Positions 385 through 63,217 of a stretch of DNA of 64,000 nt are shown here, in pieces. The position numbers and the translations under genes are program-made. Origin of the DNA: Isurus oxyrinchus (taxonomy: Eukaryota). The DNA lies in assembly GCA_026770705.1 (NCBI GenBank), contig JANJGN010000034.1, positions 5,394,001 to 5,458,000 of the forward strand. Direction: 5' to 3'. Position 1 is the first letter of the stretch. Each line of letters starts with the position of its first letter. The notes below the pieces were generated by a model. The model worked only from the letters and a program-made list of their open reading frames with translations, did no database searches and was not told the origin of the DNA.

Positions 385-2690
385 ATTTGTTTGGCATCCC
401 TAATTGACCTTGAGGAAGTGGACATGAGCCATTTGCTTGTTGCACCGAGTGCAGCATAATCCCCAGTGCTATTAGAAAATACTTTCAAATATGTGATCCA
501 TTGCCAGCGAAGGAAAGGTAAGACAGTTCCAAGTCAAAGTGTTTTTTGCATTGCATGAGAGCTTGGAGGATGTTTTGTTCCCATGCATCCACTGCTGTTG
601 ACGTTCAAGGTGGTAATGATCTCGTGTTTGAATTATCGTGTTGATGGAACCTTCAAGGGGCTCCCTGAAGTGTGTCTTGTGTATGATATCGACTGCTGTC
701 ACTGTGGGTTGGTGATGGAGTAAATTAATATTCAAAATAGTGGATGGTCTACCTTTCAAGGCAGTTGCCCATTCCTTTGTGGTGCAGAGCTTCCGGAATG
801 CTACTGGAGACTCCTTCATTTAAACAGGCAGAATTACATCATATTCATGATTTTGGCCTTATCCATCAATAGCAGAATTCAGAGACAGGGGCTGAGTTAC
901 TCGCAGCAGAATTCCCGGGCACTCTTCAGATATTGCAACAGAGTTACATTTCTCGTGAATGGCTGTCCACAACATGCTATTTGTGGAGATGCAAGGAAGG
1001 CTATGGCGCTGAATGTCAAGTGTAGATGGGTAGAGTTCTCCCGCTGGAGATAGTCAACGCCTAGCACTTGTGTGGCATAATAGTTACTTGGCAATTAACA
1101 GCCCAGTGTTAAAAGTTGCCCAGGTATTGTTACATATGGACAGCAGGCTTCTTCAATATATAGTTCCAATAAATTATACTGACACTTCATCATGCGGTCA
1201 TAAACAAACATTTGCGCCTTTGACATTATGATAGAAGATTGATTATTGATGAATCAGCTGAGGATGACTGGGCCGAGAACATTACATTGAAGAGCTCTTG
1301 CAATCATGTCGGCAGACTGTCATAATTGGCCTGCAACTACTAGTAGCATATTCATGTGTTATGTGTGACTACAACAGTGGAGGGTATACCGACACCCCTG
1401 CCCTATTTTACAATGTCATCAATTTTGACAGCACTACTTAATGCCACACATGATTGCATGTTGCTTTGATATCAAAGGTAAATTCCGGCAAATCATCACT
1501 TATGCTTTGTGTTTTATAGACGTTTAGGCAGCACTCTGAAGATGACAGGAGCATGGTGGCTGTTGAAGAAGACAAGCTGAACAACCCCCATATACACTTT
1601 TGCTGTTTAATATTGTTTAAAGTTTAATTTTAATGTGCGCTTGATCACAGTACAGGAGGAATGCACAAGACAACCATTCCAAACGCCTTAGTATCACATT
1701 ATTTCGTGGGTTGTGGGTTTTGCTGCCGAGGCTAGCATTTGTTGACCATCCAATATTGCCTTTGAACTGAATGACTTGCTATGCCATTTCAGACAGAAGG
1801 CACATTTTGCAGCTTTACACGATTGGCAACTCTTCATTCTATCTCTGTCGGGTTCAGGTCCTGGGCTTCTAACTGGCTTTCTGAAACGAACCAGAATGTA
1901 TCCATTCATTGTTTACCAAAGGCATTTAAAGGGGTTCGCCAGAGCAAGACTTCACAAAGTGTGTTTAAGTAACATGATGGCACAATGTGTTTCGATATTG
2001 AGGGGTAGGGGTTGGTGTGGAGGCACTTTTGAGCTGATCAAAATATTCTGAATCTATCTGATAATCCAACCAGGTCCAAGTCATGGCCTTATCCATTTAA
2101 AGAGGAGACTTGGCCTTCGCAAAGTCTGTGTAGTTTTCACATATAGCATGGCATGTACAGATGCATCGACCTGTGAGGTCAGGTCCGAATGTTATTTTCC
2201 AGCTTTTTGGATACCTTGTGGCCTGCAGAGACCCAACTGGCAGAATTGTACTGCGATCCTCGGTCAGCTTCATACGTCGTGTGATTCCAGGACACTCTTG
2301 TTAACCGGAGTATAAATAGCCCACCACGTGTTTATTCTGTGCACTTTCCACTCTCAGTACCTTTAGTAACTAGAGCTCAACATGGAGGAGTACTGATTTA
2401 TTGGTTTTCTCGGGGCAGTACGTAACAATCAATTGGATATTTCCTTGTCAATTTTTGACATAATACGGTGAGACTTCATGAGGTCTACAGTAAATGCTCA
2501 AGAGCTCCAGGACAACCATCTTTCAATTTTATGCCACTGTTCCCCTCCTTCCAGCACCGTGGAAGTACCATCAAAAGATGCACTGCAGCAGTTAAACAAG
2601 TTGGCTCATCACCACCTTATCAAAGACCAGTTAGTAGCAATCACTTGTCTTGTCAGCTGGGTTAGCATTCCCATAATTATATAATTTTTA
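385..2690 (-). mobile_element. Degenerate non-LTR retrotransposon (LINE, CR1/L2 group), antisense
   Basis: Similar to 10400-11350, e.g. 'gaatgtcaagtgtagatgggtag...cacttgtgtggc' vs 'cctgtcaagtggtgacggttag...cacttatgtggc'; begins with the LINE 3'-tail motif 'catccctaattgaccttgag'; no intact ORF. Confidence 0.65.
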
Positions 2691-3338
2691 GAAACTGAAA
2701 TCATGTGTTGGACCATTTATTTCCAATAAATTCGGAGAATAGTATACATCACATAACTTTTTGTCTAACATAGCTATAAGCTAAGTCGTTCTTGCAATTT
2801 CTTACTAAAAACATTTTTTTTTCAACATTATTTAACGGGCTGTTCAGCACTGTGGCCACCTGATGTTGTGGACATTTTTAAACAAATGAAAGTCACCTCT
2901 CCCCTTGTGGTTAGAAATTATCTCTCTGCCTGCTTACAAGAGGAGTTTCCGCACACCAACTTAATCTATGTTTACCTACGAAATGCTGTGGAGATCGAAG
3001 TTTTCTTCCACTGTCGACTTAAAACCTACACTAATTTCATTTCTGCGACAGAGAATATGTTTAGTCAAATTGTCAAAATGGTCCTAACGTCTTATGGCAT
3101 CAATTGTGACCACTGTTGGTGACTAGCATGGACATAGAATAGGTAATAAAGCCTATATACCACGTTGGTAAAACTTCTGTGACACATCACGTGACACATT
3201 TCGCATGCCACTATACAAGAAAATACTGGTTGTTTATTTTTCATCCAGAGCAAAGCACACGTTTTTTTTTATATGTTAACGTGCAAAACTCGGCACTTGA
3301 TATTTGCAATAGACGTTTATCTTTCTTTGTTGCTCTAG

Positions 3339-3374
3339 ATCTCCAAGATTGTCAGAATACGTTAAGGAATCTAG
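3339..3374 (+). CDS. micro-exon m1, 36 nt, (D)LQDCQNTLRNL
   Basis: ctttctttgttgctctag|ATCTCC...AATCTAG|gtgaga; phase 1-1, open. Confidence 0.88.
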
Positions 3375-3789
3375 GTGAGAAAACAATGTTATTTTGATAG
3401 AAAACATTCACAGCCACCTTCCATTTTTCTTACGACAATGAAAAAAGCAAAATTAAAGATAAAGAGTATCTGTTGAGAATTGAAAGCAAAATATTCAATA
3501 TAAAACAGAAGCAAATCACCTGTAGCAAGATTGGAAGCGGCATGTCAAAACTGTGGCCTCAAACCTCTGGTCCACGACAATTCTAAACGTATTGGAGCTG
3601 CAAAATGGTTTCTGCAATACAGCAGTTTCACAAATTGTCAAGCATACCTACAGATCCCAGCTGAAATACAGATGGTCAGGACAACAGAAGAGGAAACAAT
3701 TCGGACCACAAAGACAGAAAAGAAAAGTTACTGACCAATTAAAGGACAGCTGTTGCGTATACAGATAGCTTCTGATGGTCTAAATATTT

Positions 3790-5090
3790 CAATCAGTCAG
3801 TTAGAGAGGGGGTGAGTAGGCCTGCGAGAGAGTTGATAGGTTTGCAATTGGGTGACTAGGTGAAGGCTGCATGTGAATGAGATGGACAGGAGGGCGACTT
3901 CTTGAGGTGGAGTAACAGGGGAGATGGGATACTGCTTGAGTGGTCAACGATATCCTTGCAATTATTAAGTGGGGGATTAGGTGGTTAGTCTGGAGCGTAG
4001 TCAGGCCCAGGCTGGTGCTTTCGGGTCTGCTTTGTGGAATAGAGGAGTGGCCAGAGTGATTCACATGGATTAGCGTAGTCCGTACTAATGGGATTTGGGA
4101 GGGGTGTGTTTGGGGCCGCTGCAATCTCTGGTTCAGTCGCGGTGGGAGCTGGAACATTTAATGCTACGAGCCATGGAAATGCCCATTAACTTCAGCGGAA
4201 GCATGAAATCTCGCTCTCTTCAAGGAGGTCATATTGCTTCCAGGGGTTTTTCAGAGTCGTCAGCCTGTCGGGACTCATACGAATCTCACGAAGGCTTAGT
4301 TGGGGTAATGGTAGCAGTTGTTTCCTCTCGGCAAGTTTGTGAGCTTCGGTTTTAGTCTCGTCGAGATTGGGATGTCCGATTGATCTCGGATGAACAACAG
4401 TTCCAATCAGATGTTTTTTCATGTTTGAGGTTCTGGGGGTGTTTGGATTTGGTTAGGTCAAGATCGTTGGGCGCGGATGGGTTGGGGTGGGTGTGGTTCA
4501 GCTTGGCATTGGTTCAGTCGCACGTTTTGAGAGCCGGGTGGGCAAACCCTTCTGAATCTTCTGTCAGCTGGGTTGTGAGGTTGTTGGTGTGGTTTTCTGG
4601 TATGGTGCGCAGGCGGCGGGATTTTGCAGCCATGGACATATCTGAGAGGCAGGTGTTGCTCTTTGGTTGTATATTTATTGAGGGCTGATGGCGGGGGGAA
4701 GGAGGCCAGTGGAATGGGCGTGGGGTGGATTTTTCTTGCATGCTTACGGCCAGGAGGTTGTCGTTGTTTAATTGTGATGGGATCGGTTATGCTGTTTAGT
4801 TGAATTGCACTGCTGAATTTGAACAAGTATTCAACTGTGCAACGTTTACAGGTCAAGGAAGCAGGCTTAATTTGAGTATCTTGCCCATGTCTGCACCTCT
4901 AAACTTAGGGTTAGAGAAGTTGACAGAGGGGCCTCCGAAGTTGAGTCAGACCATCGGTGGCTCCCAGGCAATTTCTCTGTTTATATATGTGCAGGACAAC
5001 TGCATGGTCCTGATGCGCATCTCTCAAATTATGGTCCATCTTCACCGATATACTGATTGGAACTTTCAGTCCAGTGTATTTTAGAGGCCC
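3790..5090 (-). mobile_element. Unclassified GC-richer retroelement-like remnant (possibly LTR-element gag/5' region)
   Basis: Sharp compositional block, G/T-skewed on +, with several overlapping broken minus-strand ORFs (3801-4157, 4192-4422, 4458-4856); family not identified. Confidence 0.35.
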
Positions 5091-5737
5091 GGTACAATTT
5101 CATCATACATTGAATTGAATAATACTGCGGGGTGGAAATGAGTTTGATTCATATATAATTCAAATGTACGACATACAAGATAAATATATATGCTATTACC
5201 TGGTTTTGCATTAAACATAGTGCCTTATATTTAATTGTGATGCACTTAATTCACAAATAGCAGTGGATTCTGTAAAGGGCCGTAATTTTTAAATTTTTTC
5301 TTAATGCTATCACTGCTGAAACTGTTCTACTCTCTGTAAGAGTACATTGCTCTCTTGTTCAGAGAATAAAAGAATCAAATAATTGTTGGCTTTTATTTCC
5401 AAAAATGATGTTCAATTATCAACTGTTAAATAATCACAAATCAATTACAAGTGCCGTTTCCTTGCCTCCACCATGATCCATGTAGTTGCTTGTTAAATGG
5501 GTCAAGTAAAATCTAAGAACCTTAAATTTTCCCCTGGGTATGAAATTCATCTATTTTCACAGAGTCCTGGAAAATATTGAATTTCCTTTCCGTGGGGCTT
5601 GGCCATTTGATCATTACGATGGTTTAATTCTAAATCAATTATTTAGTTTCCTTTCAATTCGCCATCAAATATGCACAAACTTATGAACATAGAACTGCAG
5701 TTCTCTATGATCAATATTTACTTTTGTACATTAACAG

Positions 5738-5764
5738 AAAATGCATTGGCTGCCAAAGAAGGAG
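5738..5764 (+). CDS. micro-exon m2, 27 nt, ENALAAKEG
   Basis: cttttgtacattaacag|AAAATG...GAAGGAG|gtaata; continues the heptad register. Confidence 0.88.
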
Positions 5765-7769
5765 GTAATAAAATTTAAATTGCCAAACTATTTAAAAAAA
5801 TGTTGATCATGTTAACTTGTCACCCTGATTGCAAAAAATGCTTGTTTTAATGGTAAGATGTGAAATGTGAAAATATCATTCTACAGCACCTGGTAGAATG
5901 TTCATCTGCTGAAGAATAAAATTTATAAATTGTGTCAAGGCGATGAGTCTTCACATTAGACACTAAGCCCCTGAACGCATAAGCAAGGCTTGTGGAACTG
6001 GATCGCTTTTTCATTGCTGCAATTGCCACTTTTCAACTTGTTTGTTGCATGGAGGCCCTTCTGCATGCTCAGGTCAGAATATGGATCGTGGGCTGCAAAG
6101 GGGAGATTAGAATAGCACATAAATGCGATCGCTATAGTTGACATCGTAGCTTGGAAGACAGAAATTAGATCCTGCAAACATCATTTTGCGTCATGAATGG
6201 TGTATTGCATCTCTGGGTGCGAAGGTGAAACACATAAACTGGAGGATGCCGAAGTTCCTTCATGGAGAAGGAGTGAGGCAGCGAAAACCAGAGATATGAC
6301 ATGTCATCGGGTCAAACATTCAAGTGCTAAGGAGTAGGCAGATAGGTATGACTTCGATGCGAGTAAACTGTATAACACTCAGTACAAAGCGGCAACGTAA
6401 GCACAAAAGAAAGCAAGATCGGGAGAATGAATTCCACATCATGCTGGCTTGAACGATGGACGTACCTGGATTTTTGGACCGGTTGTAAAAAGGGAAGATA
6501 TGGTGTAAAGTGATAGGTTGCACCGCAGAAGGATTGTGAGAATTTTTCTTTACGCAGCAGTAAATTTGACCTAAATTATTGATCGGCAGTTTCCTTGGAA
6601 ATGTACCAAGGATTAATAAGATGCACATAGGTTGCTCAGTAAAATGAAATAGCTGCAATCAAGTACGATCAGACGAGGAACACTACGAGAAATATTTTTT
6701 AAAAACTGCACTATAAAGCAAGCAGGACGTCCGATGAAAAAACTTGGAATTCGAAAATCACCAATAGTTTTAACTGACAAAGTCGGAACTTGTTTTACAG
6801 TGATAACAACAGCTTACTTAATCTGTTCAGGTCCAAAGCATTCAGATTTGAAAAGGATGAAATAAAACATGGGGGATAACCATTTATTCATTATATTTAG
6901 TTAGATTTGAGAAACATCAAGAACTACAAATCCAAATAAAAAAATGCTTATGACTGTGGATAACTGTCACTGCTAGGTTGCTAGCACTTCATATGACTGG
7001 TCGGCTAGTTGTCGGCGCTAGGGTACAATAAGGCTCTTAGGAAAATAAATAAAAAGAAAAATCACAGATAAGCTGGCTAACATCTATATTCCTGAAACAG
7101 GAAAGCCAGTGTTTGCTTCATCAAAATCGTAATAATTATATTAATTATTAAAAAAGAGAGGAGGAAGAAGAAGATGATGAAGAAGAATTGCCTCAAAGTA
7201 GTGCGACAGGAAATCGTGATAAATGGTTGTCTTTCATTTTGATGTTAGTCAGTTGCCCTTTCTATGCTCAGCCGACGACATTTGTTGATGTATGCTGCTG
7301 CATTTTTTTTCAAATTAGGCCATAGAGGAAACTAGCTCCATTTCAAGCTTCCAGATGGGAATGACGCACAAAGTGATGAAAGAAATCAACAGAGAAGTTG
7401 CATTTGGAATTTACTGCAGCAAATGCGAGCTGATACAACTTGGCAGAATCGATAGCGAGAAGAACTGCATATAAACCGAAAACATTACATTGCCAACCGG
7501 GAATTATTTAAATTTTAACAGTTGGAAATCGTGCAATTAAAGTTTTCCTATTTTTTAGCACCACACCCGATATTCTTGTCTGTTGAATGCATGGAATATC
7601 TTTGGCAGTTTATCAACCCCATGTACGACCCCCACGTCTTAAATTGGCCAATGAATCAATCTAATAATCTGGCTCCAAGATTCATGTATTTTAACATTTT
7701 GAGTAAAGCAACATACCGACAATGATCGAATACAACAGAAGATCACCCTGAAGAGGATGAATTATTTAG

Positions 7770-9200
7770 CCCTTCCTCTGGTTTCTTACGGCCGTGCACT
7801 TTAATGATGGAACAGCTCTGCCCATAAAAGTGATTAGGCCACGTAGGCTGCTGTCTATTAGCATGGTGACTGCAGAGGCAATCCACGGGTAGGAAAGGAA
7901 ATGTGGAGTAAAATTGAGAAAATATATTTGCATGACCATCGAAAAGTGCACCAAGGAAACTGAATGAAGTCCTCAGGGAGACAGTTCTGAATCAATGGAA
8001 TGAATGACCACTAGACCCAGCACTGCAACCAGACATGCCTTCACTTACATGTGTCACCCTACGAGTCTAGGTTATGAATTCTATGCTCTAGGATGAAAGG
8101 CTTTTCAAGCTTTATTAGATAATTGTGATATGAAATGATATCTGTACAGTTAAGGACATAATTACGCCACTTCTTGATAATTCGATCTGCATATTTCCAG
8201 CTTTGAATTTCAAACCCCTTTGAATGACAGGCCTGCTCAATTGAGTGGACAAAGGAAACTTGTGTGTATATTTCTTGAGGAGAAATCGGCTCTGATTCCA
8301 AAAATTATTATCAAGGGTTCTTGGCTTGCTCGTTACGCAGGTGGAGGGGCCAAATGTTCTGATATAAAAGGAGATTGTCGACTCGGTTGGAGTCACAAGC
8401 TCTGATGAGGAGGATAGAAGTGTTAGAAGGAGGGGACGAGTGAGATGAAGAATGAAACACAAGGATGGGTACGGTAATGTGGCACTTTAGAAAGAGGACA
8501 AAACAACTACAGAATTCGAGGTTCAGGAATAAATGAGAACAATGCAGTGGAGGCCCAGACGGTCTTAATTCCAACCCACGCGTATGCAGGCAGAGATTTA
8601 GCTACCTGCCACTGAACTCATGAGGTAAATAGGCCTTTGGTGGAACTAAGAACAGCACCTCTTCATCATGCCAACACATGGCCTCGTCGGCAAGGTCCTC
8701 TCACTGAGCACATGTATTCATCATCTTCCATCTCTTCCAAGTGCTTCTTAACTTCTGCTGACGCCTACCATGCGCTGCAAGAAAGAGGGAACTATGCATG
8801 GCCTCACAGAATGAGGAGCAAGATTTCTCCCTTCTAGAATGACTTTCCCATAGGTCTGAACGAGCAGGCATATTTGGTTGGCAATATGAAATACAGGCAC
8901 TGCTCCACAATGCCAAAATTTGGAGAATTGCAGCACTTGAAAAATTCTGGAATCTATTAACATTTGCCAACCATTGATATGTTTTTCAGAGATTGGCTAC
9001 TATAAACTAAAAGAGAAAATACTGGAAAATAGTCAGAAGTACTCGAATAATTCGTGGACAGAGAAATAAAGCTAATGTTTCGATAATATATGACACTTCT
9101 CCAGAGCTGAAAAGACCTAGAAATGTAATGAGTTTCATACTGTTGAAGACAAGGGATGGATTAGGTGGAGCAAAATACGGGGTTAGGCATACGTGCAGCA
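7770..9200 (-). mobile_element. Old LINE fragment (probably L2-like), antisense
   Basis: G/A-skewed block with broken minus-strand frames; resemblance recalled, not aligned. Confidence 0.35.
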
Positions 9201-9874
9201 CAGGAGATATTTGGCAAACATATCATTTACACAAGACAAAGGCTTTGCTTACTCTTTTAAAGTGAATGGAAGGTGCTCCAAGTTGCATTAAGGTCAGCCA
9301 CCAGAGAGTTCTAATAGAAGAGCAACTACAAATGGTCTCTGAAAGCTAAATATAAAAAGAGTTACGGTCTGGCCTTGTTGGGCGAGTGGGTTAGGGGAAA
9401 TATCAACATGAAGGAAAGCATTTATGGTCCAAATTTGTTGAAATCATTGTCAAGTGCAGATGGTGTTACAGACACCTTTCAGAAGGTGTAGTGCTGACAC
9501 TTCAGTTTGCTTTGGGGACGTGGTTGTAGATGACGTCAGCTTCCACTTATGCCTTGTTCAATGTACCTGCTGTTTCCGAGACAGGGCCCCCAGCCGTCAA
9601 GCACTCGCTGGACGGCTTCACCGCCTGCAAGGCACCTTTGCATCTAATGCACAGAAATTTGCTTATGATCGCGTGCAAATCCAGCTGCAGAAAGTGCGAT
9701 GAACGAGCCACCGTATCAATCGCCTCAGTGACTATGTTCAACCGGAATTTCTCTGAATGTTTTTGAATATTGGGCAGGGTTGTAATCACTGCCCAAGCAC
9801 AGCAAAATCCACATGCCCTGCACCGAAGACGAATAAATAAACTTTCAAATGGTACATTTCTCTTCTGATTTCAG

Positions 9875-9910
9875 ATCTGAAAATGTGTGAAGCAGAACTG
9901 AAGAAGACAA
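9875..9910 (+). CDS. micro-exon m3, 36 nt, DLKMCEAELKKT
   Basis: ttctcttctgatttcag|ATCTGA...AAGACAA|gtaggt; paralogous to m1 (DLxxCxxxL). Confidence 0.9.
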
Positions 9911-9989
9911 GTAGGTTATGCAGAATCCCATCAGGATTCACATGGATATAAACATCATGGTATTAACACATGGCATTCTAGGTTGGCTT

Positions 9990-12260
9990 TTATTTATTTG
10001 TAGAACGGGTTGTTGGCGTGGCTGTCTAAGGCAGAATTATTGCCAATCTCTAATCGCCAGTGAGAATGTGGTGGTCAACTGCCTTCAGAAAAAGCTGCAC
10101 TCCCTGTGGAGTAAGTATATCCACCTGTCATTGACGGAAGGAGTTCCCAGGTTTTAAACGAGGAGCGGTGCAAAGTCGGCGATCTATTTCCAAGTCAGGG
10201 AGGTGAGTTGTTTTGAAAGGAACTTGCTTGCTCGTTTTTCATGTGTCTGCTGCACTTGCCCTTTATGTGGCAATGTTTTTGGGTTTGGAATGCGCTGCCC
10301 CAGGGGCATTTTTCAGTTAATGTCGTGCATCCTTTAGATGATTACATACTGCTGCTGGTGGCAGAGGCAGGGAATGTTTGTAGATGGGGCGCCAATCAAG
10401 TGGGCTGTTTTGTGCTGTTTTTTTGTTTAAATTAGTTCATGGGATTTGGGCTGCGCTGACTCGGCCAGCATTTATTGCCTAGACATAATGACCATTGCGA
10501 AGGTGGTGGTGAGTTGCCTGCTTGAACAGCTGTAGGTGGTGTAGGTACACACATAGCGATGTTAGGAAGGGAGATCCAGGGTTCTGAAGAAGCAAATGTG
10601 AAGGAATACAGGGTGGTGAGTGTGTTGGAGTGGAAATTCCAGGTGGTGAAGTTACCATCTATCTGCTGATCTTGCCTTTCAAGATCGTAGTCCTCGTGTG
10701 TTTGGAAGGCGTTTTCTGAGGAGCCTTCGTGATTTCCTCTAATGCATATTGTAAATGGGACACTTTGATGCTGCTGTGCATCGGTGGTGGAAGGATGAAT
10801 GTTAATGGATGTGGTACAACTCAAGCGGGCTGTTTTGTCCTGGACCGTGTCAAGCGTCTAGAGTATTGTTGGAGCTGCACACGCCCAGGCAACCGAACAT
10901 TGTTCCAACACATTCCTGACGTGTGCATTGTGCATTGTGGACAGGCTTTGGAGACTCAGGTGCTGAGTTTGTCGCCGCAAAATTCGGAGCCTCTGACCTG
11001 TTCTTGTTGCCTCAGTATTTAGACGGCTTGTGCAGCTCACTTTCCGATCAATGGTAAACACCGAGGATGCTTATTCTGGGGGGCACAGTGATTGCAATGC
11101 CATTGCCTGTCAAGTGGTGACGGTTAGCTCCTCTCTTGTTGAAGATGGTCAGCGGTAGGCACTTATGTGGCGGACATGTTAGTTGTCACTTGTCCGTCCA
11201 AGGCTGGATTTTTGTCCATGTATTGATGCGCTTGAACATGGATTGCTGCAGTATCTGAATAGTCATGAATTGCGCTGAACATTGTGCAATCGCTTCTGAC
11301 CTGCTAATGGAGGGAAACACATTAATGAAGCCACTGAAGGTGATTTAGTCGCGGGCACTACCCTGAAGAGCAAATTGATGTCACATGTGCTTCTAGCAGC
11401 AACAATGACCTGAAATTTGAGCTACTGATTTTCTCGCTGGATATCACTGGGATTTCTGCTTAATAAGTCACAGATCTCAGATTTTTTTTTTAATCTGCCA
11501 TATGGGTGTACTTGATGGCTGCGCTCTTTGAGTTGTTAGGGAAAGAAAAGTTTTGTTTTAAGAATAAGCATGCATTACGATCGAAAACAGACAATTCAAT
11601 TTGTTTCAATATTTCACATGATGAGAGTGTTGCTCGCTAGGCTAACGTTTTTTGACTATTCCATATTGCATTCAGAACGTGGTGGTCATCTGCATCCCTA
11701 TGCTCTGCAGTACATTTCGTGCAGATATATTCACAGTGGAATTAGGGAGGGAGTTCCAGGATTGTGATGCGGAAATTGTGGAGGGACAGCATTTTTAGTT
11801 CCTTGTTAGGATGGTCTGTGGCATTAATGGGCCAATATGCCAGTGTTTGCTTTCACAGGAAAATTCTGCCCTTATCCTTTGAGGCGATGGCGTGCTTACA
11901 TGTTGCATATAAAGGAGTATTAGTGAGTTGGTGCACTGTTGATCATAGTCACTGTGGGAACTGGTAGAGTGAGTGGATGTTGAAAGATGTGGATGTGGTG
12001 CTCTTCAAGCATGCTGCGTTATTTTGGATGGTGTAGAAATTCTTGAGTGGTGTTCGAACTACACTCATACAGGGAAGCGAATAATATTCCACTACACTGC
12101 TGAATTGTGCCTTGTAGGTCGTGACTAAGCATTAGGCAGCGTGGCGGTGACCTATTATTTCATCAAATCATAACCTCTGACCTGCTCGTTTAGCTAAAAT
12201 GATTATATCCAGTTCACCTTCTGCTCAAAGGAAAGTCCTTAGATGTTGAGAGTGGAAAAT
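9990..12260 (-). mobile_element. Cluster of degenerate LINE 3' fragments (same family as 385-2690), antisense
   Basis: Recurrent motifs 'ttattgcc...aatcgcc...gaggtggtggt', 'ttccaagtcagg', 'ctctgacctg' at about 10040, 10470, 10990 and 12175. Confidence 0.65.
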
Positions 12261-12342
12261 TTCTGCCGATTCTGTTATCACCAATATAACGACTTAAATC
12301 TGCGAATGGGAGATAACGACAATATTTTCTTTAAATACACAG

Positions 12343-12369
12343 AAAAAGAGTTGGCCGAGACTGCGGCAG
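12343..12369 (+). CDS. micro-exon m4, 27 nt, KKELAETAA
   Basis: ttttctttaaatacacag|AAAAAG...GCGGCAG|gtaatc. Confidence 0.88.
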
Positions 12370-13291
12370 GTAATCAATTTTGGAAATAGTTGGTTATGTC
12401 ATCATTTAGATTCATATACCTTTCTTGATGGGTTTGTGAGATTTTGCCTTGATTTTCAGGATAAGTTTTTCAAGGACCATATACATTTGCAAAAAAGTGA
12501 AACTGCTATATTCAGAGCGAATTTGCACGCGCACCAAATGTTTGCGTTCGATGGAATCAGTTATCGATTAGAGAACTGATCTAAGTGCGGATAGTTAACC
12601 AGTCAGTTGCTGATCTTTCCATCATCCATCTTGCTGGTGAGAGATGTTCCGAAGCATGACTTAACACGATGAGAAAATTTGCTCGAATAAAACGGGAGCG
12701 AAAAGATAGCAATTTCTCTTAACTGGTAAATAAGCAAAAGGTAACAGGTTTTTTCTTATTGTTAATAATTGGCAGTGCATTATTGTGATCTTGACTTATC
12801 GCCTTGCCTGCAAATGTGGTGGGAGAAGATTTTGTCATGGACTTTACAGCAGATTTCGCAAATATTTTGATGCGCGACATGCACTTTTTGTGCATGGAGT
12901 CAAGTGGAACTAAATGCACAACCCTCACAAAGATGCAGTACATAGAGGATGTACAGATTCCGCACACTCGGTGCTTTATTGTGCGATATATCCCACCTTA
13001 ATATTCTGGAGTCCCAGCTGGAAATGCAACTGCTTGCATGTGTGGTTAACTGGGGTGATCCCCTTGAGTTAAGCAATCAAACTTCACGTTGTAGTAAGAT
13101 TATCGTACAATAAACCGCTGTGGAAGTTAGCGCTGGACCCGTTTACTTCCTCAACTTCGACACAAATGTAACACTCATATTAGAGGAAGCAAATAAATCA
13201 GAATGCAGACTGTTATCCAGTTCAGCTCTCACGTTAAAGATGCAATGTTTGGAATACAAAAATGTATTTTCTGGTGTGTTTTTTTCTGCAG

Positions 13292-13321
13292 AATTGAAAA
13301 AGTGTAAAGGATCTAAGCCTG
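13292..13321 (+). CDS. micro-exon m5, 30 nt, ELKKCKGSKP
   Basis: T-run then ctgcag|AATTGA...AAGCCTG|gtcagt; its Cys is 21 aa after the m3 Cys. Confidence 0.85.
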
Positions 13322-15249
13322 GTCAGTGATCGTAAATGTTAAGTCATTTGTGGTTATCACCAGATATACTGGAAGATAAAATCCTGAGTTATGGAACTAA
13401 AAATGATTCTGTGTGGAATTATGATGCATATCTACAATGAACCAATAAAATAATTGCATTTCCTGAAGCGACCTGCTGTTCCCAATCGCCCATGCGTTCC
13501 AGCTGTGAAAATTGCATCAAGTATTTTATCGAAAATATCAGGGTAAATGATGAATTACATGGGAGGAGCTATACATTTTTGAAGATTGAGAACTGGTCAT
13601 GTGGTCTATCATTTGGAAGCGACTTATTTATTTTTTGTACAAGCCACTAGCCATCCTTCCTTGCCTCAACTTACTGACGCCAGATTCCATTTCTCCAATC
13701 CTTGTTTCATGATCGTCTCCACCTGTAGCTGCATCTGTGCACTCCGCCCGATATTGGTTATTTTGTATCCATCTCAAAATTCTGATCTCCTGTTTGAAGA
13801 ACACATATATTAGAATATTATTTAAGAATCTATCTTCAAACATTTAATGATGTGGATAAATATTGGTTCATGTTGAGCATCTGTGCACAAGCGGAGAAAA
13901 AATATTCCACAGCAATGTAGCTGGGTTGAACGGGGGAAAAAAATGTAATTAATGCCTGTCTGAAGGACCTCAATTCTGATCGCAATACCCCAGAAATATT
14001 CTTGCAAAATTCATCCATTCGAGAAAAGTGTTATTCTCTGCTAAATAAAGTTCATTCCTTAACGTTTAACGCTCCAAAGCGTACTAGAATTTTACATAGA
14101 ATATCAAATTACAACGTGAGGGCATACTACTGAATTTCTGCAACAGAGCCAGACAGCCAACTTTACTGTTGCTGCCGAATATACGAAGGATGTGATCCAT
14201 TTTCTTTCCCACTTAAACTGAAATTGGACAAGGATATTGGACGCAATCAAAGTTAACTCAACCTCAACTCATTGAAAAGAATATGAACTGTTCTGAGCAT
14301 CTCCTGGCCACTTCAAACCCGGAAGATCCTTTTTTCTTGGAATGTATCATGATTGCTGTCGCAAAATGTGTGTCATTATCAAGTGATCGATGAATGAAAT
14401 GTTCTCCTGAATATAGCCTGTCAGAAAAGTCTTATATTGCCGATTCTTAATGTTATTATGATTACATGCTTTAAAAAAAATCAATGTTTAATCATCTCAA
14501 TGCAATCTTCAAATGCCAAAGGGGACAGAGGCTCTGGAGTCATAAGTGGGAAAAGATTTCGACAACACAAGCGCTCAATTTTTGATGAAATGAAGAATGG
14601 AGGCCAAAACTTTCCTTTCATATTCCAATACCTGTAATTCCATTGCATGTTCACTATAATTAAGATTCCGTATTTTCATGTTACCTCCTATCCACTATCT
14701 GATGCATGTGTGCAGAAATTAAATCTGAGTAGTGAAATGGCAATCTACTGGTTTCGTTATGAAAAGGAAAGGAAACAGGGCAAGCCAATGCTCAACCAGG
14801 GGCGTTCGAATCAATGACGTGCAAGACCTTGAAACAAGGAGTTCATTTAAGAAACAAATCTTCACAAAAAACGATTTGGATCACAAATGCATTTCAGTTG
14901 GGAAATTGTAGTCCTCGCCCCATCTTTTGCTTCAGACAACAATTATGTAGACTCTTAACTTCCTGCAGCAATGTTCAAGCAATCGCTACAAAGAGGAAAA
15001 TATTACTGCGACAGGGTCTTGATGTAATATATAGGGATAAAAACCAGTAAGCTTTCCAGGTGCACCAATCATGCCTTCCTCGCCAGCAGCAGAAAAGGGA
15101 GAATTTCCAATATTAATGGAAGTCATTATTTCAGAATCTACAATAAAGGGGTAGCGGTGCTGGGCAACACGGGATTCTGGGGTGATGTGGGTTGGCGAAA
15201 CAGCAGGTACTTGGAGATATTTTAGCAAATAATGCAGAGACACCATGGA

Positions 15250-15800
15250 TTTGAAAAAGGAAGATTGTACTTCATAACTATAACTGTTTTGTTCTTAATT
15301 ATGTAAGGCACAATTTGAAGGAATGGAATATGTACATGTTTAAGAGCATTTTTGGCAATGCACGCCATAATATGTTGGTTACCAGTATAGGCTTGCGTGT
15401 GATAGGGTTAGAATCGTTTAAGACTAAAGCGGAAATGCAAAGCAATTTTTCAGAATTGTAACCAATGTGCTTGGACAGAGTGATACGGAATTCACGTGTT
15501 CAACTATTTGAGGTTAGCAGGAAGAAAGAAATGAGAGACTTTTTAGCAAAGCATAATTGACCATCTATTTGATAAATAGATGTATGTTTAGCAAATGGAG
15601 AGAGGCTGGGTTGAACTTGATTAGGATGAGAAATCTTCGTTGCATTATTGGCTTTGAGGAGCTGGCATGGTTTTCCTTTGCCACGAGCAATGTGGTGCGG
15701 AAATTTGGCCAGGCCGTTCAATGTATGGCGGTTTTAAATTACGTCCACGTTTAAACGCTGCATCGATTAGAAGAGGATTAGAGAGATCGGAGGACACAAA
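15250..15800 (+). mobile_element. CR1 LINE fragment
   Basis: CR1-like 3' ORF2 motifs ('gaatggaatat', 'ttagcaaatggagagaggctggg'). Confidence 0.4.
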
Positions 15801-16989
15801 TGTAATGTCCTGAAAAACAGTTGCCAGAAGATCTGAGAAAGGACGTTATTTCACTTAGGGAATTCCATAATTCAATAAGTCTCTGATTCTAATATTATTG
15901 TACGCCAAGAGTAACAACGATATGAAAGTGAAGTTGGTTGCAGAATTCATGAAGTTAAAATTACAGGACTGCTGAAATAATGCTGTGTGAATTGATGGCC
16001 TGGTTTTTCGAGAGAGAACTGTCATGGGTTGTTAAGGTTCATTGTGCCCTGTGAAAATTTCACCATGGCTCAATGGCATTAACAGTCTGAGCGCGTATCC
16101 ACCATTGGAGAAAAGAAAAACACAGTGGGAATGGCAAAGTGTACCATCACAGGTGATTGTACACTGGCTGTACACGTTAGCACTTTGACGACAGACTCCA
16201 GAAACCCTCGTGGCTGAAAGTTAAAATGTGTCATTGGCCAATGTTGGCTGATTATCACCTATTGCTCAAATTCTTCAATGCTCCACGTTTTTTGAAAACA
16301 ACCTGGAAGACGAATCAGTAAATGCATGGCACAGAAAATACTATGTCCGCCAAACTCAGTAGTCATTCAAAATTTTAATTTGTTAAAGGCAGTGCAGAGT
16401 GAGCTGGCACAACCCTGTCAAATTGGTGAGAGACAGAAAATGCAACTGTCCATACAAATAATGTTACGAGTGTAGGAATTCTCAGGTCTTAAAGCCCAAA
16501 ATAAGTATTAAAATTGAAGGTCCCCATGTCTCTATATAACCCAATCGCTTACGTGAAATCCAGGATGCTCCAGACCATATAAGAGAACATATCGCACTTG
16601 GTGGGCACCCCATGCTACACATCGGGAATATTCTTTCAATACCAAAAGTACACAATGGCAAAGCTGTGTAACATAAAGAGCTTGCACTGCTGCATCTCAC
16701 CACTCGTCTTATGATAGTTGCTTCCAAATCAGCGTTATTTAATTTCCTGATTTAAAAAATGCATTATAAATCTGAGGGCAGCATCTGCAAGCTCTTTTCC
16801 AAGAGACGCAATATTCTGACTTTATCTCGCTTCGCAAATGCCTAAGAACTCATTTCGTCAGAGATCTGTAAGTGAACAGATGGACTTCTAACATTCAAGA
16901 ATCCGTGCACCATGAACCTCTCAAGCCCAATTTTGAATGGGCATTGTGCAAGTTCATCCATCATTATTTCCTCCATGTACAGTAAGCAT

Positions 16990-17085
16990 GTTTGTTTTTG
17001 TATGTCTGTGTGGGTGTGTGTGTTTGTGTGTGAGTTCATCTGTTAGCTTGTGTTTGTGCTTATGTTTGTTTGTTTGTGTGTGCAT
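16990..17085 (+). repeat. Degenerate (TG)n/(TTTG)n microsatellite
   Basis: Seen directly. Confidence 0.85.
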
Positions 17086-17448
17086 GCAGGTAGTCTTTCC
17101 GCCTCTCGAACCTCCCCCCATATCCTGGTACGACGGCGCTGGTCTGCGTCTTAACTAAACCTCACTCTGCCCCCTGTCTCTTAATATACTTGCGACCAAA
17201 AACATAAATAAATAAAGCTAAAAATATATTTCTAAAAAGCTGAAACATTTAAATGGCATCATTCCATAATTTCTGCTCCTGCTTATGTGAAGTAAATTTT
17301 GTCCATATCAAGGCTAAACAGCTGAAATTGTTTTTAACTTTGTGTTAATTTGACCTCTTCATTAACCAGAGTGCGGCAGTGGAAAATAGATGCACAATGC
17401 ATTTCGGGTTGAGGTGCAGCAATGTTAATTTTTTTTTTTCTCAATCAG

Positions 17449-17475
17449 GAGGACAGAACCTTCAAGACGAATTAG
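17449..17475 (+). CDS. micro-exon m6, 27 nt, GGQNLQDEL
   Basis: long T-run then ctcaatcag|GAGGAC...GAATTAG|gtagaa. Confidence 0.82.
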   Translation, partial: EDRTFKTN

Positions 17476-18240
17476 GTAGAATGCATCAAAATGTTTTAAA
17501 TTGACTATCAAACAGCACGCATATGTGACGGTAAAAATACACTGCGGCAGAACATCTACTGACATTTTATTCAATCTACATTTTGTTTTGGCGTTCAGAA
17601 TATCCAACGTTGCATATATATTTCACACTCCACATCTTTTACCAAGTTATGTCAGCTCTAGTAAGGACACAGTGAATAACTCGAGGCACTTCAAAATTTA
17701 AGTAGGCCGAAGCTGCCTGGAGCCCCAAATTACGTGCCCTCACCTCAGCTTTTCAATGTTCACTGCCCATCAGCTCCAGGTTCTTCAACTATGTAAGTTG
17801 CTGGAAGATTGATTTAGCAAAGGCAACAGACCACACGCCACCTTAACGGCAGACAGGTGGATCTAGCTAAGTCGTTATCACTGACCAACGCCATTGAAGG
17901 ATTGACAAATAAACAAAGATGCAAATGCGGGTGGACTTAAGTAAATGGTCAAATAAAATGCCAAATCACGAGCAGCCAGGTTCAAGAAAAATGTGACACA
18001 TATCGTTAATAGCTCAAAAAAAAGATGGTGTAACAAAAAAGAGAAATCAGTTAGTCATTTTCTCAAATTAAAAATTGTAACATTTGTTTTTTCACGAAAA
18101 AAAAAACACCAGATGGATTACCTTCCACAAATATGTTGATCCCTTTCTTGGCTCAGAATTTTAATCAGCAATCATCAAAATTGCAATGCTTGATAACGAC
18201 GTTAGCTGTGAAACCTCACTTCAGTTCGTTCATTCCTACA

Positions 18241-18562
18241 GAATAAAGAATAAAGATTACTCTGACGCTCAAGATAGTTTTAGGGTTTTCAATGTGTGTC
18301 TATTGTGCTGCAGAGGGAACACATAACAACATGAAGATTACAGGAAAGGAGATTTGGTTCGAGGTTATGACATCAATTGTGTACTGGCGGGTCACAGTGA
18401 AAGGCCAAATGACCCACCATGACACAATTGATGTCATAACATCAAACCAAATCTCCCTTCCAGTAATCTTCATGTTGTTATTTGTTCCCCCTGCAGGTCA
18501 GTAGACACACATTTAAAACCCTAAAAAAATTTTGAGCGTCAGAATAATCTTCATTTTTATTC
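18241..18562. repeat. Imperfect long inverted repeat / foldback (arms about 154 bp, 15-nt loop 18395-18409); MITE-like
   Basis: gaataaagaataaagattactctgacgctcaa...ttatgacatcaattgtgt...gggtca pairs with tgaccc...acacaattgatgtcataa...ttgagcgtcagaataatcttcatttttattc. Confidence 0.92.
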
Positions 18563-20039
18563 GGAGCTGGGAGGTGATGGTGGTGGTGGTGGTAGGATAC
18601 CCCAAGGATGGGCCTTCGGAAGTTCCCAGTTATGGTTGGCATTTCAGTTGCCAGGAAATCAAACTTCCCCTGCCAATTACACTGCATTTTCAGGCATTCG
18701 AAAAAATGTGATTTAAATTGTGCATAGGCTTAGCGAGCTTACCAACATGTACACGGGACAAGATAGAAAAATAAATAAAAAAATCCAAATTGGGATACCT
18801 ATTGCAAATTCAGACACAAAATAGTTTCAATAATAGGAAAACACCTGAGGATATTTCGCAAAACCGCTAACCCTCACTGCGACCCCAGGTACCAGGTGAT
18901 TGCAACCCCCGCCCTATAAACCAGGAGTCATGCTCCCAGCAAAGACACCCGGCCCAATTCTTGCACGGAAGACTCCCTCCACACACTTGGGGCTCTTCTA
19001 CCCCCGTACAGGTCCGTATCCCTGTCTCTAAGCACGCGATGTCCTACCAGAGCCATTCTCGACCCTCCACCTCCAAGCTTGCTCCCAGAGGCACGACCAC
19101 ACTCACCATCGAGGCCTGACCCCAGCATCGTCAAGGGTGCCCGATCCCCAAAGTACTCCCGTTGATGACACCACGCCCAGACACATTAAATTCTAGCCTC
19201 CATGCCCCATGCTGCCCAATCACAAACGGTGCTGAGATCCAACATCCGTGACAGGTTTGACACCCCGCCCCCTTGTCAACACACCCCGAGACCCTGTTGT
19301 CTCACCACCGCATTCTGATGCCCAACAAGCAACGTGAAAACAAATTCTCAAACCCCAGATTCAAGAAACAGCCCACCAGCTGCTTCGGGTCCGGAGATCA
19401 GGAGACTCTGAGGCCTCACCCCCATGACCCAAAGCACTTACATCCAAATCCCAGAAAGAGTATGCAATTCCCTGATACATATCATTTCTCCCTTCCATGT
19501 GAATCACCATTCAATGTCATCGGACCTTTTAACCTACCAATTTTACACGAAAAAAAAGGCCTCTTAGCGTCCTTCTCTTTGTCAGAGTTGCACTCGCAGC
19601 TCGGCCCCATTGATTGCACAGCATGTCTTTGGATCATCCTGGCCAGAGTGAGAATGTCGAGTGATAACAGGTTTCAGGGATTGAGATGGGAATGGAGTGA
19701 CAATCCGACGCTGGTTGGCACTCCGAGGATGCTCAGGCCTTTTGGAACATAAATGAATATGTAACAGCTGGCAACTTTCCAACTATTGTCAGAAAGTATT
19801 GCGAGCTAAACTATCCATATCGCTGTCGCACTTGTTTTAAAGCTGACAGTATTGTTACTGTTCAGAAATTCTCAAAAGCCGTAGATATGACATCAATATT
19901 TTTTTTAAATACTGAAAACTAATAAATCATTACTAACCAAGGCTCTTGACAAACAGTTCCTGTACATATAGCACCTATCTCAGATAAAGTACGACACACA
20001 CAAGCATTCTCATCCGAACAAATTGAAAAAATTGAATAT

Positions 20040-21170
20040 TCATCAAGCATGTAGAGTCATGAGAGGGAAGGCGAATCTAATCAGGCAAAAACTCAATATC
20101 TTTCAATCAAAAACAAAATTGTGAAATGACTTTTGAACTGGTATGCAGCTGCCCATCTTCAACAATAAACTGCTTATCTTGGGTTTCCTTTAAGGTATTA
20201 AGAGACCAAGTGGGGCATCAAGGATAGCTAGTGAATTTGAAATCAAGGAGAAAAATGGGGGGAAAACCTCAATATTGGCTGGAGACTTAACAAGCACGAA
20301 CAAATCTAATTGTTTCTGACAGAAGCTAATCAAACCATCGTACATTATCGTTGCAAGAGTTCCTCAGGGGACATATTCATCTGTCTCATCAGTTGTATTG
20401 AATGCATCATAACGTCACTTCGCTAATGATTGTGCAATTTTCAGTTCTATTCCGGTACCTCATCTAATAATAAAAAAATAACTAGCAGTCATGGACAATG
20501 GCCTGCACACAAATGAAAACAGTGCCCAATTGTATCATTATTATCCCTCAATACGTTGCATCAATTTTAAAGGCGTTGCCATAAATGGTTCGCCCGCAAT
20601 TAACAACATGGAGGCGGCCATTAAAAATAAACTTAATTGGTATAGGCACGTAAATGCAGCCGCTGCAATTTGAGGTCAGGCAGTGGGAAATCTGCGTAGA
20701 GTACCTGACATCCTGGCTCTCCAAATCCTGCCACCACCTACAGGATGCAAGGCAGGTTTTCTTCCTGAATAACACTATATTACCCTTATGCCTGCAAAGT
20801 CATTAGTACTGATTCAAGTAATTTTGGCAACAAACGAACATTCCACAAGGCAAAATAGTACACGTCTTGGACACTCCACATATCGATTACTAGCGCACGG
20901 TAGGAACAGTGTACGATACAAAGAGCGATCCAGGAACTCAGTAAAATCTTTCAAGAACACGTTCCAAAATTAAAGTTTCTGTCGCCTTGAAAGATCAGAG
21001 CAGGAAGGAATTTGGCAAACCACTAAACGCATGTTCTCCTCGAAACGATACAGAAACTGGTCGGAGGTATGTCATTATTATTTTCGTCGTCAATCAGTTA
21101 AAATCCTGGAACTCGCTCTCGAACAGCGCGACGGTCTGCCACACCACACGGACTCTACTAATTCAAACAT
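20040..21170 (+). mobile_element. Degenerate LINE RT/3' end, sense
   Basis: 'ttcgctaatgattgt' (FA[N/D]DC, RT catalytic-motif remnant) near 20420; 3' motif 'aaaatcctggaactc...aacagc...caccacacggact'. Confidence 0.65.
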
Positions 21171-21849: not shown

Positions 21850-21879
21850 ATAAATGTGAAGCACTTCTTCGAGACGTCA
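21850..21879 (+). CDS. micro-exon m7, 30 nt, DKCEALLRDV
   Basis: aatattttatag|ATAAAT...GACGTCA|gtaagt. Confidence 0.85.
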
Positions 21880-22371: not shown

Positions 22372-22514
22372 AGAGATAAAAACTAAGAAAACTGCGGATG
22401 CTGGAAATCCAAAACAAAAACAGAATTACCTGGAAAAACTCAGCAGGTCTGGCAGCATCGGCGGAGAAGAAAAGAGTTGACGTTTCGAGTCCTCATGACC
22501 CTTCGACAGAAGGG

Positions 22515-22548
<34 letters not shown>

Positions 22549-23842: not shown

Positions 23843-23869
23843 TTGCCGAAAACCTGAAGCATGAAGAAG
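23843..23869 (+). CDS. micro-exon m8, 27 nt, IAENLKHEE
   Basis: catttttaaccag|TTGCCG...GAAGAAG|gtgatt; a 9-aa exon here is what the heptad register between m7 and m9 requires. Confidence 0.7.
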
Positions 23870-25896: not shown

Positions 25897-25932
25897 CAAT
25901 TGACCTACTGGAAGAGGAACGTAAAGATGCTA
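25897..25932 (+). CDS. micro-exon m9, 36 nt, AIDLLEEERKDA
   Basis: tccatctgcttccag|CAATTG...GATGCTA|gtaagg. Confidence 0.85.
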
Positions 25933-27432: not shown

Positions 27433-28211
27433 TTTCTGGTCTGCTTTGACTGATCTGGCAGATTCCATGGCCCTTCTATCTTGCTATTTTGTTCGTGACT
27501 GCCAATCATGTTAAGGAAGGGAATACAAATAAAGCAAATGATGTGCTTTCACATGAGAACTGATCATACTAGGTTTTTATTTATTTGTAAAGAATGCCAA
27601 TTGAGGATCAGTTCAGGAAATTACAGAAGAGATGGTAACATGTGAAATTTGCTATCCAAAGCATCAAACAACTTCCCAAACCATTTCCCATGCTGGAACT
27701 CTTATTGAAATGAAATAACACAAGCTCACCAAGTGCCACGTTCAAAATTACTGCCTGTGGAGCTTAGTTTTGCGCAAAGGGTTACACTTTTTTTTTCTTT
27801 TACTGCAGAGGTCTTCAATTATCAAAAAAGCATTGAGGCACATCCGCTGGCCGGTGAATGTGGAAATTGCCACGCTGATTATGTTTCTCTTTAATTTCCC
27901 TTTGTTTTCATTCTCTTTTCTTTCCTCCCGGTAATAATTCATCGATTGAAATGCTGGCAAATGTGCAAACTTGATGTCTCTTTTTAAAGTAAGAACGGAA
28001 ATTAAAATGTGTTAAAATTAAACATAATTGGTGAAACTAATCGGTCAATAGTTCTTGAATGGCATGTGTGTCATCACAACATTTCCTGCGATTATACAAA
28101 TTTATTTTCCTATGATTAAATTAAATGTATGGCAATTGCGGTTGAAAAACTTCATGAACTTTCAGACATTTAGTTCAAGTTTATTTTGTCCTTCGATTGG
28201 TCTAATTTCTT

Positions 28212-28331: not shown

Positions 28332-28358
28332 AGGACAAACTTAAGAAGCTGCAGACAG
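28332..28358 (+). CDS. micro-exon m10, 27 nt, KDKLKKLQT, with non-canonical (GG) acceptor; possibly skipped or dead
   Basis: ttttcctttttaaatttcgctttcgg|AGGACA...CAGACAG|gtaacc; good pyrimidine tract and donor, right size and register, but cgg where cag is expected. Confidence 0.6.
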
Positions 28359-33013: not shown

Positions 33014-33040
33014 GACGAAAGTTGCAGGATTGCGAGAAAG
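33014..33040 (+). CDS. micro-exon m11, 27 nt, GRKLQDCEK
   Basis: tttattttcttcatacag|GACGAA...GAGAAAG|gtagag; LQDC motif shared with m1. Confidence 0.85.
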
Positions 33041-36892: not shown

Positions 36893-36928
36893 AACTGAAA
36901 CAACTGAAAGATGAATTAGCAAGGCTAG
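36893..36928 (+). CDS. micro-exon m12, 36 nt, ELKQLKDELARL
   Basis: ttctttgtttttgccccag|AACTGA...AGGCTAG|gttaga. Confidence 0.9.
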
Positions 36929-38265: not shown

Positions 38266-38292
38266 AAAAAGAACTGGAAAAGAAAGACAAGG
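38266..38292 (+). CDS. micro-exon m13, 27 nt, EKELEKKDK
   Basis: ccattaaaatatacag|AAAAAG...GACAAGG|gtaatt; paralogous to m4. Confidence 0.88.
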
Positions 38293-38977: not shown

Positions 38978-39004
38978 CTTTGGATGCAAAGTGCAAAAAC
39001 ACCG
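38978..39004 (+). CDS. micro-exon m14, 27 nt, ALDAKCKNT
   Basis: ttcattttgtttctatag|CTTTGG...AACACCG|gtaagt; KCK motif shared with m5. Confidence 0.88.
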
Positions 39005-51461: not shown

Positions 51462-51488
51462 ACCAGAGAGTGGATGACCTTAAAAAAG
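51462..51488 (+). CDS. micro-exon m15, 27 nt, DQRVDDLKK
   Basis: tatgcttatgttacag|ACCAGA...AAAAAAG|gtatgg. Confidence 0.85.
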
Positions 51489-56967: not shown

Positions 56968-57003
56968 AACTAAAAGACGTTAAAGATAAACTTAAAGCTA
57001 AAG
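56968..57003 (+). CDS. micro-exon m16, 36 nt, ELKDVKDKLKAK
   Basis: gttttcacttttcag|AACTAA...GCTAAAG|gttaga; paralogous to m12, including the same donor. Confidence 0.9.
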
Positions 57004-59619: not shown

Positions 59620-59646
59620 AACAATCACCGCCGGAGAAGACCAGGC
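59620..59646 (+). CDS. micro-exon m17, 27 nt, EQSPPEKTR
   Basis: tttacgttatttgatacag|AACAAT...ACCAGGC|gtatgt. Confidence 0.78.
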
Positions 59647-63190: not shown

Positions 63191-63217
63191 AAACGCAGAG
63201 ACTTCTTCAAAAGACAA
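63191..63217 (+). CDS. micro-exon m19, 27 nt, ETQRLLQKT
   Basis: ttcacctctttttcag|AAACGC...AAGACAA|gtaagc; ends like m3 (AAGACAA|gta) and shares CTTCTT with m7. Confidence 0.85.

Follow-up and report, generated by a model that had tools for sequence, protein, structure and literature searches.

A megabase-scale array of symmetric micro-exons in Isurus oxyrinchus and its predicted product, a long coiled-coil rod

The coiled coils of TRIM proteins and butyrophilins hold B30.2 domains together or away from an anchor, and B30.2 proteins are mostly cytosolic. In TRIM proteins, a coiled coil that mixes heptads with hendecads is located before the B30.2 domain; this rod has approximately 100–150 residues and is encoded by few, larger exons. 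Tetherin/BST2 is a short type II membrane protein with an N-terminal transmembrane (TM) segment, a GPI anchor and cysteines at the core of its coiled coil. The closest described system is chicken BG, in which, according to excerpts of two papers, phase-1 heptad micro-exons encode cytoplasmic coiled-coil tails with a conserved cysteine (PMC5938342, PMC4046983). In butyrophilins, excerpts of the same papers place the B30.2 domain after the heptads (PMC4046983, PMC5938342).

The shark locus analysed here shares with the BG, butyrophilin and MOG genes, as these excerpts describe them, numerous small exons, each of which has a split first codon and encodes one predicted coiled-coil heptad, as well as cysteines in the tail (PMC4046983, PMC5938342). 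The excerpts give approximately 28–37 heptad exons for BG, whereas at least 200 were estimated for the shark array, which also adds exons of 27 and 36 nt and units of 21 and 39 residues. By analogy, the array appears to work like a BG or butyrophilin heptad tail that is built exon by exon, yet it was not classed as BG or butyrophilin because the core codons differed and the array DNA scanned yielded no Ig-C, Ig-V or TM exon. The array resembled TRIM in its mixture of heptads and hendecads, and a B30.2 domain was seen only near a shark paralogue. A scan for RING and B-box motifs was blank over 664 kb plus samples, a coverage that ended short of the 5′ end. Cysteines at coiled-coil core positions were shared with tetherin/BST2, whereas the predicted shark rod was more than 10 times longer and no TM segment was found. 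The tetherin/BST2 architecture was rejected on hydropathy: over at least 1,544 spliced residues there was no hydrophobic 19-residue window, the highest value being 0.54. The shark array is classed as neither tetherin nor TRIM. Exon-sized profile searches of proteins, which had approximately 12 informative columns and were in part limited to proteins of at most 2,000 residues, were blank, and none of the open-access papers listed was seen to describe a shark gene of this kind.

The window is the whole stretch of 64,000 nucleotides that was analysed, C34:5,394,001–5,458,000 (contig JANJGN010000034.1, hereafter C34), within a 4.98-Gb genome; all megabase coordinates refer to this contig. The DNA covered comprised the whole window, a contiguous 858 kb that surrounds it (4.900–5.758 Mb) and spot samples, approximately 1 Mb in total. 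A splice-site scan of the window, run blind to the exon calls at positions 3339–13321, gave eight strong plus-strand candidates, every one of a length divisible by 3 and open in the phase-1 frame. The features are collected in Table 1, and the micro-exon array extended past both window ends. RNA contigs from four of the five runs, placed on positions 2600–22400 of the window, contained no exon–exon joint and accumulated for the most part over repeat-like sequence at 10–12 kb. This mapping result is neutral on the exon chain, neither for nor against it. The same contig also carried a nectin-1-like gene with 92% identity to a basking-shark protein and 59–75% to other shark and ray proteins.

Table 1. 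Micro-exons and exon-like candidates of the window (positions in the window; splice-site scores in bits).
Feature	Position	Strand	Observations
m1, 36-nt phase-1 micro-exon	3339..3374	+	acceptor 5.8, donor 5.1, open frame; Leu at codons 2 and 9; Cys at codon 5
m2, 27-nt phase-1 micro-exon	5738..5764	+	acceptor 4.7, donor 3.1
m3, 36-nt phase-1 micro-exon	9875..9910	+	acceptor 6.4, donor 3.4; Cys at codon 5
m4, 27-nt phase-1 micro-exon	12343..12369	+	acceptor 4.0, donor 3.9
m5, 30-nt phase-1 micro-exon	13292..13321	+	acceptor 8.0, donor 2.4; Cys at codon 5; Gly/Ser/Pro register break at end
Probable 27-nt micro-exon, same gene	17449..17475	+	acceptor 7.7, weak donor 0.1
Possible 30-nt micro-exon	21850..21879	+	weak sites: acceptor 1.1, donor 1.9
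Probable 27-nt micro-exon	23843..23869	+	acceptor 3.2, donor 4.7
36-nt micro-exon	25897..25932	+	acceptor 3.2, donor 2.4
Uncertain 45-nt phase-1 candidate, unusual length	27809..27853	+	strong acceptor, open frame; absent from composition-weighted list
27-nt exon-like cassette, probably a dead copy	28332..28358	+	GG replaces AG acceptor
m11, 27-nt micro-exon	33014..33040	+	splice-site scan; second ladder; Leu105, Cys108
m12, 36-nt micro-exon	36893..36928	+	splice-site scan; second ladder
m13, 27-nt micro-exon	38266..38292	+	weak acceptor; second ladder
m14, 27-nt micro-exon	38978..39004	+	acceptor 6.1, donor 6.4
27-nt micro-exon	51462..51488	+	splice-site scan
36-nt micro-exon	56968..57003	+	splice-site scan
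Doubtful 27-nt candidate	59620..59646	+	donor score below 0
27-nt micro-exon	63191..63217	+	splice-site scan

Five micro-exons had been called between positions 3339 and 13321 in the initial annotation. All five have AG/GT ends, polypyrimidine tracts and symmetric phase 1; they sum to 156 nt out of 9,983 and were the only scored splice-site candidates between positions 3,300 and 13,400. Their in silico splicing gave 52 residues with leucines at 2, 9, 12, 16, 23, 30, 37 and 44. The annotated leucine ladder of every seven residues (all of these positions except 12) and the cysteines at 5, 26 and 47 were reproduced by the script, and the residues three positions past the ladder leucines read C, L, K, C, T, T, C, as had been reported. 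The complete ladder of seven leucines occurred in 0 of 100,000 residue shuffles and in 4 of 120 exon orders. The second ladder (leucines 105, 112, 119, 126 and 133, with Cys108) was likewise recovered from the exons that start at 33014, 36893, 38266 and 38978. The equality of a 36+27-nt pair with three heptads stood locally, and a further 36+27 pair upstream of the window prolonged the leucine ladder; elsewhere, units of 7 and 39 residues were found. The proposed spacing of cysteines at every 21 residues applied to three units only, since the upstream pair has no cysteine and the other zones differ. The heptad register was lost after the fifth exon (13292–13321), and past residue 133 the following core residue came 11 residues on, not 7. 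The five exons, which have no detectable paralogue elsewhere, constitute approximately 1% of the whole array, and they would be internal micro-exons of a megabase-scale gene with symmetric exons of 21, 27 and 36 bases.

Over 768 kb, the plus strand had 116 strong candidates of 21, 27 and 36 nt and the minus strand 9. The phase-1 frame was open in 115 of the 116 plus-strand candidates; the corresponding values for the other two frames were 53 and 43, and other exon lengths had no comparable excess. When no composition filter was applied, 858 kb contained 171 plus-strand candidates of these lengths (167 open) versus 22 on the minus strand (17 open). In the composition-weighted list, 161 exons spliced to 1,544 residues with zero stops; two calls had been removed before splicing, one that lay within a retroelement and another that introduced a stop and whose donor was weak. 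The exon lengths were arranged in zones, mainly 36-27-27 nt at 4.92–5.08 Mb, runs of 21-nt exons at 5.085–5.31 Mb, a 36-27 nt pattern at 5.31–5.46 Mb, which holds the five exons described above, and a 36-27-27-27 nt pattern from 5.46 Mb on. Micro-exons were also present in the spot samples at 4.30, 4.60, 4.80, 5.80, 5.85, 5.95, 6.10, 6.30, 6.60 and 7.00 Mb and absent from those at 3.5, 4.0, 4.9, 5.04 and 8.0 Mb. The length excess on one strand, the one open frame, the 1,544 stop-free residues and the heptad periods argue for a micro-exon gene that encodes a coiled-coil rod, and the exons are almost certainly real and encode a coiled coil. A 27-nt look-alike with 17 copies on contigs C47, C62, C87 and C114 was not accepted as a paralogue; its acceptor was poor and there were no neighbouring micro-exons at four of four loci.

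Hydrophobic residues were located at codon 2 of the 21-nt exons, at codons 2, 5 and 9 of the 36-nt exons and mostly at codon 4 of the 27-nt exons. Thirty exons of 21 nt, all in phase 1, had LIVMF at codon 2 in 80% and cysteine at codon 5 in 9. The hydrophobic period around the exons at 3339–13321 was 3.48 (0 of 500 shuffles), which supports the coiled coil that the initial annotation had proposed. The period in the 39-residue zone was 3.545, equal to 39/11 (0 of 500 shuffles), and hence fits four heptads plus one hendecad (7-7-7-7-11). The other two of the four stretches tested had off-heptad periods of 3.435 (2 of 500 shuffles) and 3.865 (10 of 500), which probably reflect missed exons. Leucine at heptad position a and small residues, often cysteine, at d would pack several chains into a rod with predicted zones of 7, 21 and 39 (7-7-7-7-11) residues. 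The symmetric exons would allow any one of them to be skipped, doubled or lost without a frameshift, and because such loss or gain is neutral to the frame, the rod length would be easily changed.

Cysteine at a core position three residues past leucine, another feature noted from the sequence of the window, was borne out across 167 exons, in which 40 of the 52 cysteines were so placed. Cysteine occupied 40 of 434 core positions versus 12 of 992 other positions (p 2.4e-12, with the core defined on the same exon set). The residue occurred in 51 of the 167 exons at irregular spacing, 8 of 55 intervals being 21 residues long, and made up 3.5–6.3% of the residues in three of the four zones. Such a content is high for a cytosolic rod. 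With leucine at a, the cysteine falls at d, a position suited to a disulfide in a parallel dimer, and according to an excerpt of one study, a disulfide can form between neighbouring d-position cysteines in a parallel coiled coil (PMC6146289). The same excerpt describes a cysteine at a coiled-coil d position of CEP135, a centriolar protein (PMC6146289). As CEP135 is intracellular, the core position of the cysteines says nothing on location. In the shark rod, these residues would be mainly small packing residues, and disulfides could form between them only on exposure of the rod to an oxidising compartment.

Related copies were found on the contig from approximately 2.7 to approximately 7.3 Mb. 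Copy B (5.51–6.30 Mb) was repeated colinearly as copy C (6.60–7.30 Mb) with 81–83% identity, so a copy junction lies somewhere in 6.30–6.60 Mb. Copy A had the same zone order as copy B, starting at 4.09 Mb, and its 21-nt zone was the most 5′ part found; neither 4.080–4.091 Mb nor the samples taken at 3.96, 4.00 and 4.04 Mb yielded a head of this copy. Minus-strand exons of the same types occurred at 3.93 (3.927), 3.84 (3.843), 3.42 and 2.74 Mb. The array grew by duplication of exon-plus-flank cassettes, which were duplicated repeatedly (67–84% identity between duplicates), and at least six of the cassettes were dead, their splice dinucleotides having changed. Between copies B and C, 14 of 17 exons were alignable, and AG/GT was kept in 14 of 14. 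The identity was 92.6% for exons (375 of 405 nt) versus 81.2% for introns (20,859 columns), and dN was 0.050, dS 0.139 and dN/dS 0.36, from just 14 non-synonymous and 9 synonymous differences. By these identities, this ratio and the kept splice sites, the array exons are under purifying selection between the paralogous copies B and C. At one exon per 5–6 kb, copy B (at least 5.085–6.30 Mb) extrapolates to approximately 200–240 exons, approximately 2,000 residues and a rod of approximately 300 nm.

The preferred reading, to which a probability of approximately one half was assigned, is a coiled-coil rod of approximately 2,000 residues that likely has a B30.2 (PRY-SPRY) end and is more likely cytosolic than secreted. 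One SPRY match on the contig (E 6.7e-15, 181-residue open frame, with 150 of 308 candidates scored) was located at 3.474 Mb (minus strand); micro-exons of the same type on that strand, at 3.927 and 3.843 Mb, lie upstream of it. The tie between this domain and the minus-strand array is one of position, and another micro-exon of the same type 59 kb beyond it argues against a B30.2 tip. Also against this reading, the gene of the window itself reaches neither end within the DNA covered, its 3′ end lying beyond 6.30 Mb. No plus-strand match on the contig was present among the 150 of 313 PRY and 150 of 308 SPRY candidates scored. A search for the C-type lectin domain, which is C-terminal in type II C-type lectins with a coiled-coil neck, gave 133 matches from 150 of 614 candidates, none of them on C34. 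A Pfam scan of 136 plus-strand open reading frames of at least 120 residues yielded no PRY, SPRY or Ig domain, in a setting where frames crossing the locus edges may escape; it returned retroelement domains and three weak sub-threshold matches to unrelated families. A gene start at 4.918 Mb (48-nt exon, late ATG) was considered and set aside as unconfirmed and without a paralogue. The cytosolic, B30.2-tipped rod is favoured because an SPRY domain lies near a paralogue, B30.2 proteins are mostly cytosolic, the phase-1 heptad exons of BG are cytoplasmic, 858 kb gave no convincing exon for a signal peptide or TM segment, and sequons were not in excess. The rod would oligomerise and either cluster its terminal B30.2 domains or keep them at a distance from an anchor. 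Against the cytosolic reading, exons that are all in phase 1 are also typical of extracellular modules.

The initial annotation had instead proposed an extracellular, tetherin-like rod, for which no direct support was obtained. The signal or TM exon that it had suggested looking for was sought on the plus strand over 858 kb, where no TM-like exon and one weak signal-like exon were seen; a signal-peptide-like frame at 5.0857 Mb was rejected because it had phase 0 and, by eye, lay within a common repeat. Sequons were not enriched (6 observed versus 4.0 ± 1.9 expected). A rod or fibre that is secreted or anchored at the surface and stapled by disulfides, whether or not it ends in a B30.2 domain, is a tentative alternative that we regard as rather unlikely. 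It is consistent with the core placement and high content of the cysteines and with the disulfide chemistry described for d positions, and a short signal exon may exist at the 5′ end, outside the DNA covered. The scan for signal and TM exons and the sequon count speak against it, as do the scarcity of cysteine-bearing exons, the rarity of the 21-residue spacing and the occurrence of d-position cysteine in centriolar CEP135. A membrane protein of the BG/butyrophilin type, with Ig, TM and heptad micro-exons and an enormous cytoplasmic tail, would explain the runs of 21-nt exons whose first codon is split, which are like those in the BG excerpts (PMC5938342), and the most 5′ location of the 21-nt zone in copy A, where a TM exon would come before. 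It is nevertheless improbable. The hydrophobic core codons of the 21-nt exons are 2 and 5 here versus 4 and 7 in the BG excerpts (PMC5938342), and neither the contiguous DNA nor the 8.6 kb ahead of the first known 21-nt cassette of copy A yielded an Ig motif or TM exon. The butyrophilin Ig-C model (PF22705), with 110 of 110 candidates scored, had no match at 2.7–7.3 Mb, although BG itself is also without Ig-C. No Ig-V exon was seen ahead of the rod in the contiguous DNA, which does not extend to the 5′ end; the V-set search scored 150 of 3,319 candidates.

It is also doubtful that the array has no single long product, whether as a decaying array or through combinatorial splicing into many short helical isoforms, for which the micro-exon genes of Schistosoma are a precedent. 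The dead cassettes would suit decay, and symmetric exons permit any skipping pattern. However, the splice sites were all kept between copies B and C with dN/dS below 1 at 0.36, and the register runs on from exon to neighbouring exon in genomic order, a continuity that selection on random subsets would not require. The opposite extreme is a single transcription unit of more than 2 Mb that joins copies A and B with more than 400 symmetric micro-exons and encodes a coiled-coil filament of at least 0.5 micrometre; exon skipping would determine the length of this filament, and its core cysteines would staple it into an extracellular fibre. Over 4.90–5.76 Mb, a stretch that begins beyond 4.81–4.90 Mb, the analysis recognised no gene boundary, and titin, with 363 exons, has fewer than this unit would need; such a unit is hardly probable.

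In the reading preferred here, the heptad-per-exon build of BG, with approximately 30 exons, is scaled to an estimated at least 200 exons per gene, more than 1 Mb and a cluster of several copies. If this exon estimate is true, the genes would be among the most exon-rich of vertebrates. No coding exon is long enough for an ordinary homology search, and hence such genes are easily missed or mis-annotated. The locus displays exon birth and death through cassette amplification and dead copies. Moreover, exon length sets the coiled-coil geometry, with 63 nt corresponding to three heptads and 117 nt to four heptads plus a hendecad at a period of 3.545. If the B30.2 tip is true, the genes would point to a class of very long recognition proteins, as yet unstudied, in cartilaginous fish.

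An exon-bearing cassette, consisting of a micro-exon with its flanking intron DNA, was present ten times in copy B of the array (C34:5.90–6.15 Mb, where C34 is contig JANJGN010000034.1 of assembly GCA_026770705.1), with a spacing of ~28 kb and identities of 79–84%. A single copy of this cassette was also located in the colinear paralogue C, at C34:7.18 Mb. The zone at C34:4.919–5.077 Mb, covered by the DNA stretches L092–L099, L062, L084–L087, L061 and L079–L081, was composed mostly of exons in the order 36-27-27, that is, a 30-residue unit, which were more diverged, Cys-poor and basic; this zone may be the head or the tail of a gene. Exon-like cassettes with a changed AG or GT were observed as dead exon copies, one of which additionally carried an in-frame stop. 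The positions of these and other features are summarized in the table below.

Further features of C34
Feature	Location	Strand	Remark
Same-type micro-exons, divergently oriented paralogue(s)	C34 2.741, 3.415, 3.843, 3.927 Mb	minus	
SPRY exon alongside the divergently oriented paralogue(s)	C34:3.474 Mb	minus	
Dead exon cassettes	C34 about 5.131, 5.139, 5.268, 5.270, 5.275 Mb		AG or GT altered
Probable dead exon cassette	window 28332–28358		AG or GT altered
Nectin-1-like gene, marker placing the genome among sharks	L071, C34:13.07 Mb		

Several repeats were found within introns or adjoining the array. These were young Penelope-type elements with RT and GIY-YIG matches, two of which were arranged as inverted pairs, and a stretch that by eye resembled the remnant of a decayed LTR element; their locations were L030:about 600–5000, L075, L107 and L092:about 2400–6500. 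In the window, a short repeat at 22370–22690 was seen by eye as an inverted pair flanking a CT/CA microsatellite, and RNA contigs also mapped near its left edge. On other contigs (C47, C62, C87 and C114), a near-identical segment occurred 17 times, mostly spaced by 200–500 kb, and inverted pairs were frequent.

Further features were located elsewhere in the genome. A very large B30.2 cluster at C21:82–118 Mb was the source of most top PRY and SPRY matches, and it also contained butyrophilin-type Ig-C exons and one micro-exon look-alike (89.69 Mb). Multi-exon C-type lectin genes formed a dense tandem cluster on C43 (0.02–5.96 Mb). One exon at L072:1249–1686 (C38, about 9.608 Mb) read as a V domain pre-joined to a J-like end, and similar V-set matches were distributed over C38, C49, C100 and C326. 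This exon resembles the germline-joined antigen-receptor genes of sharks.
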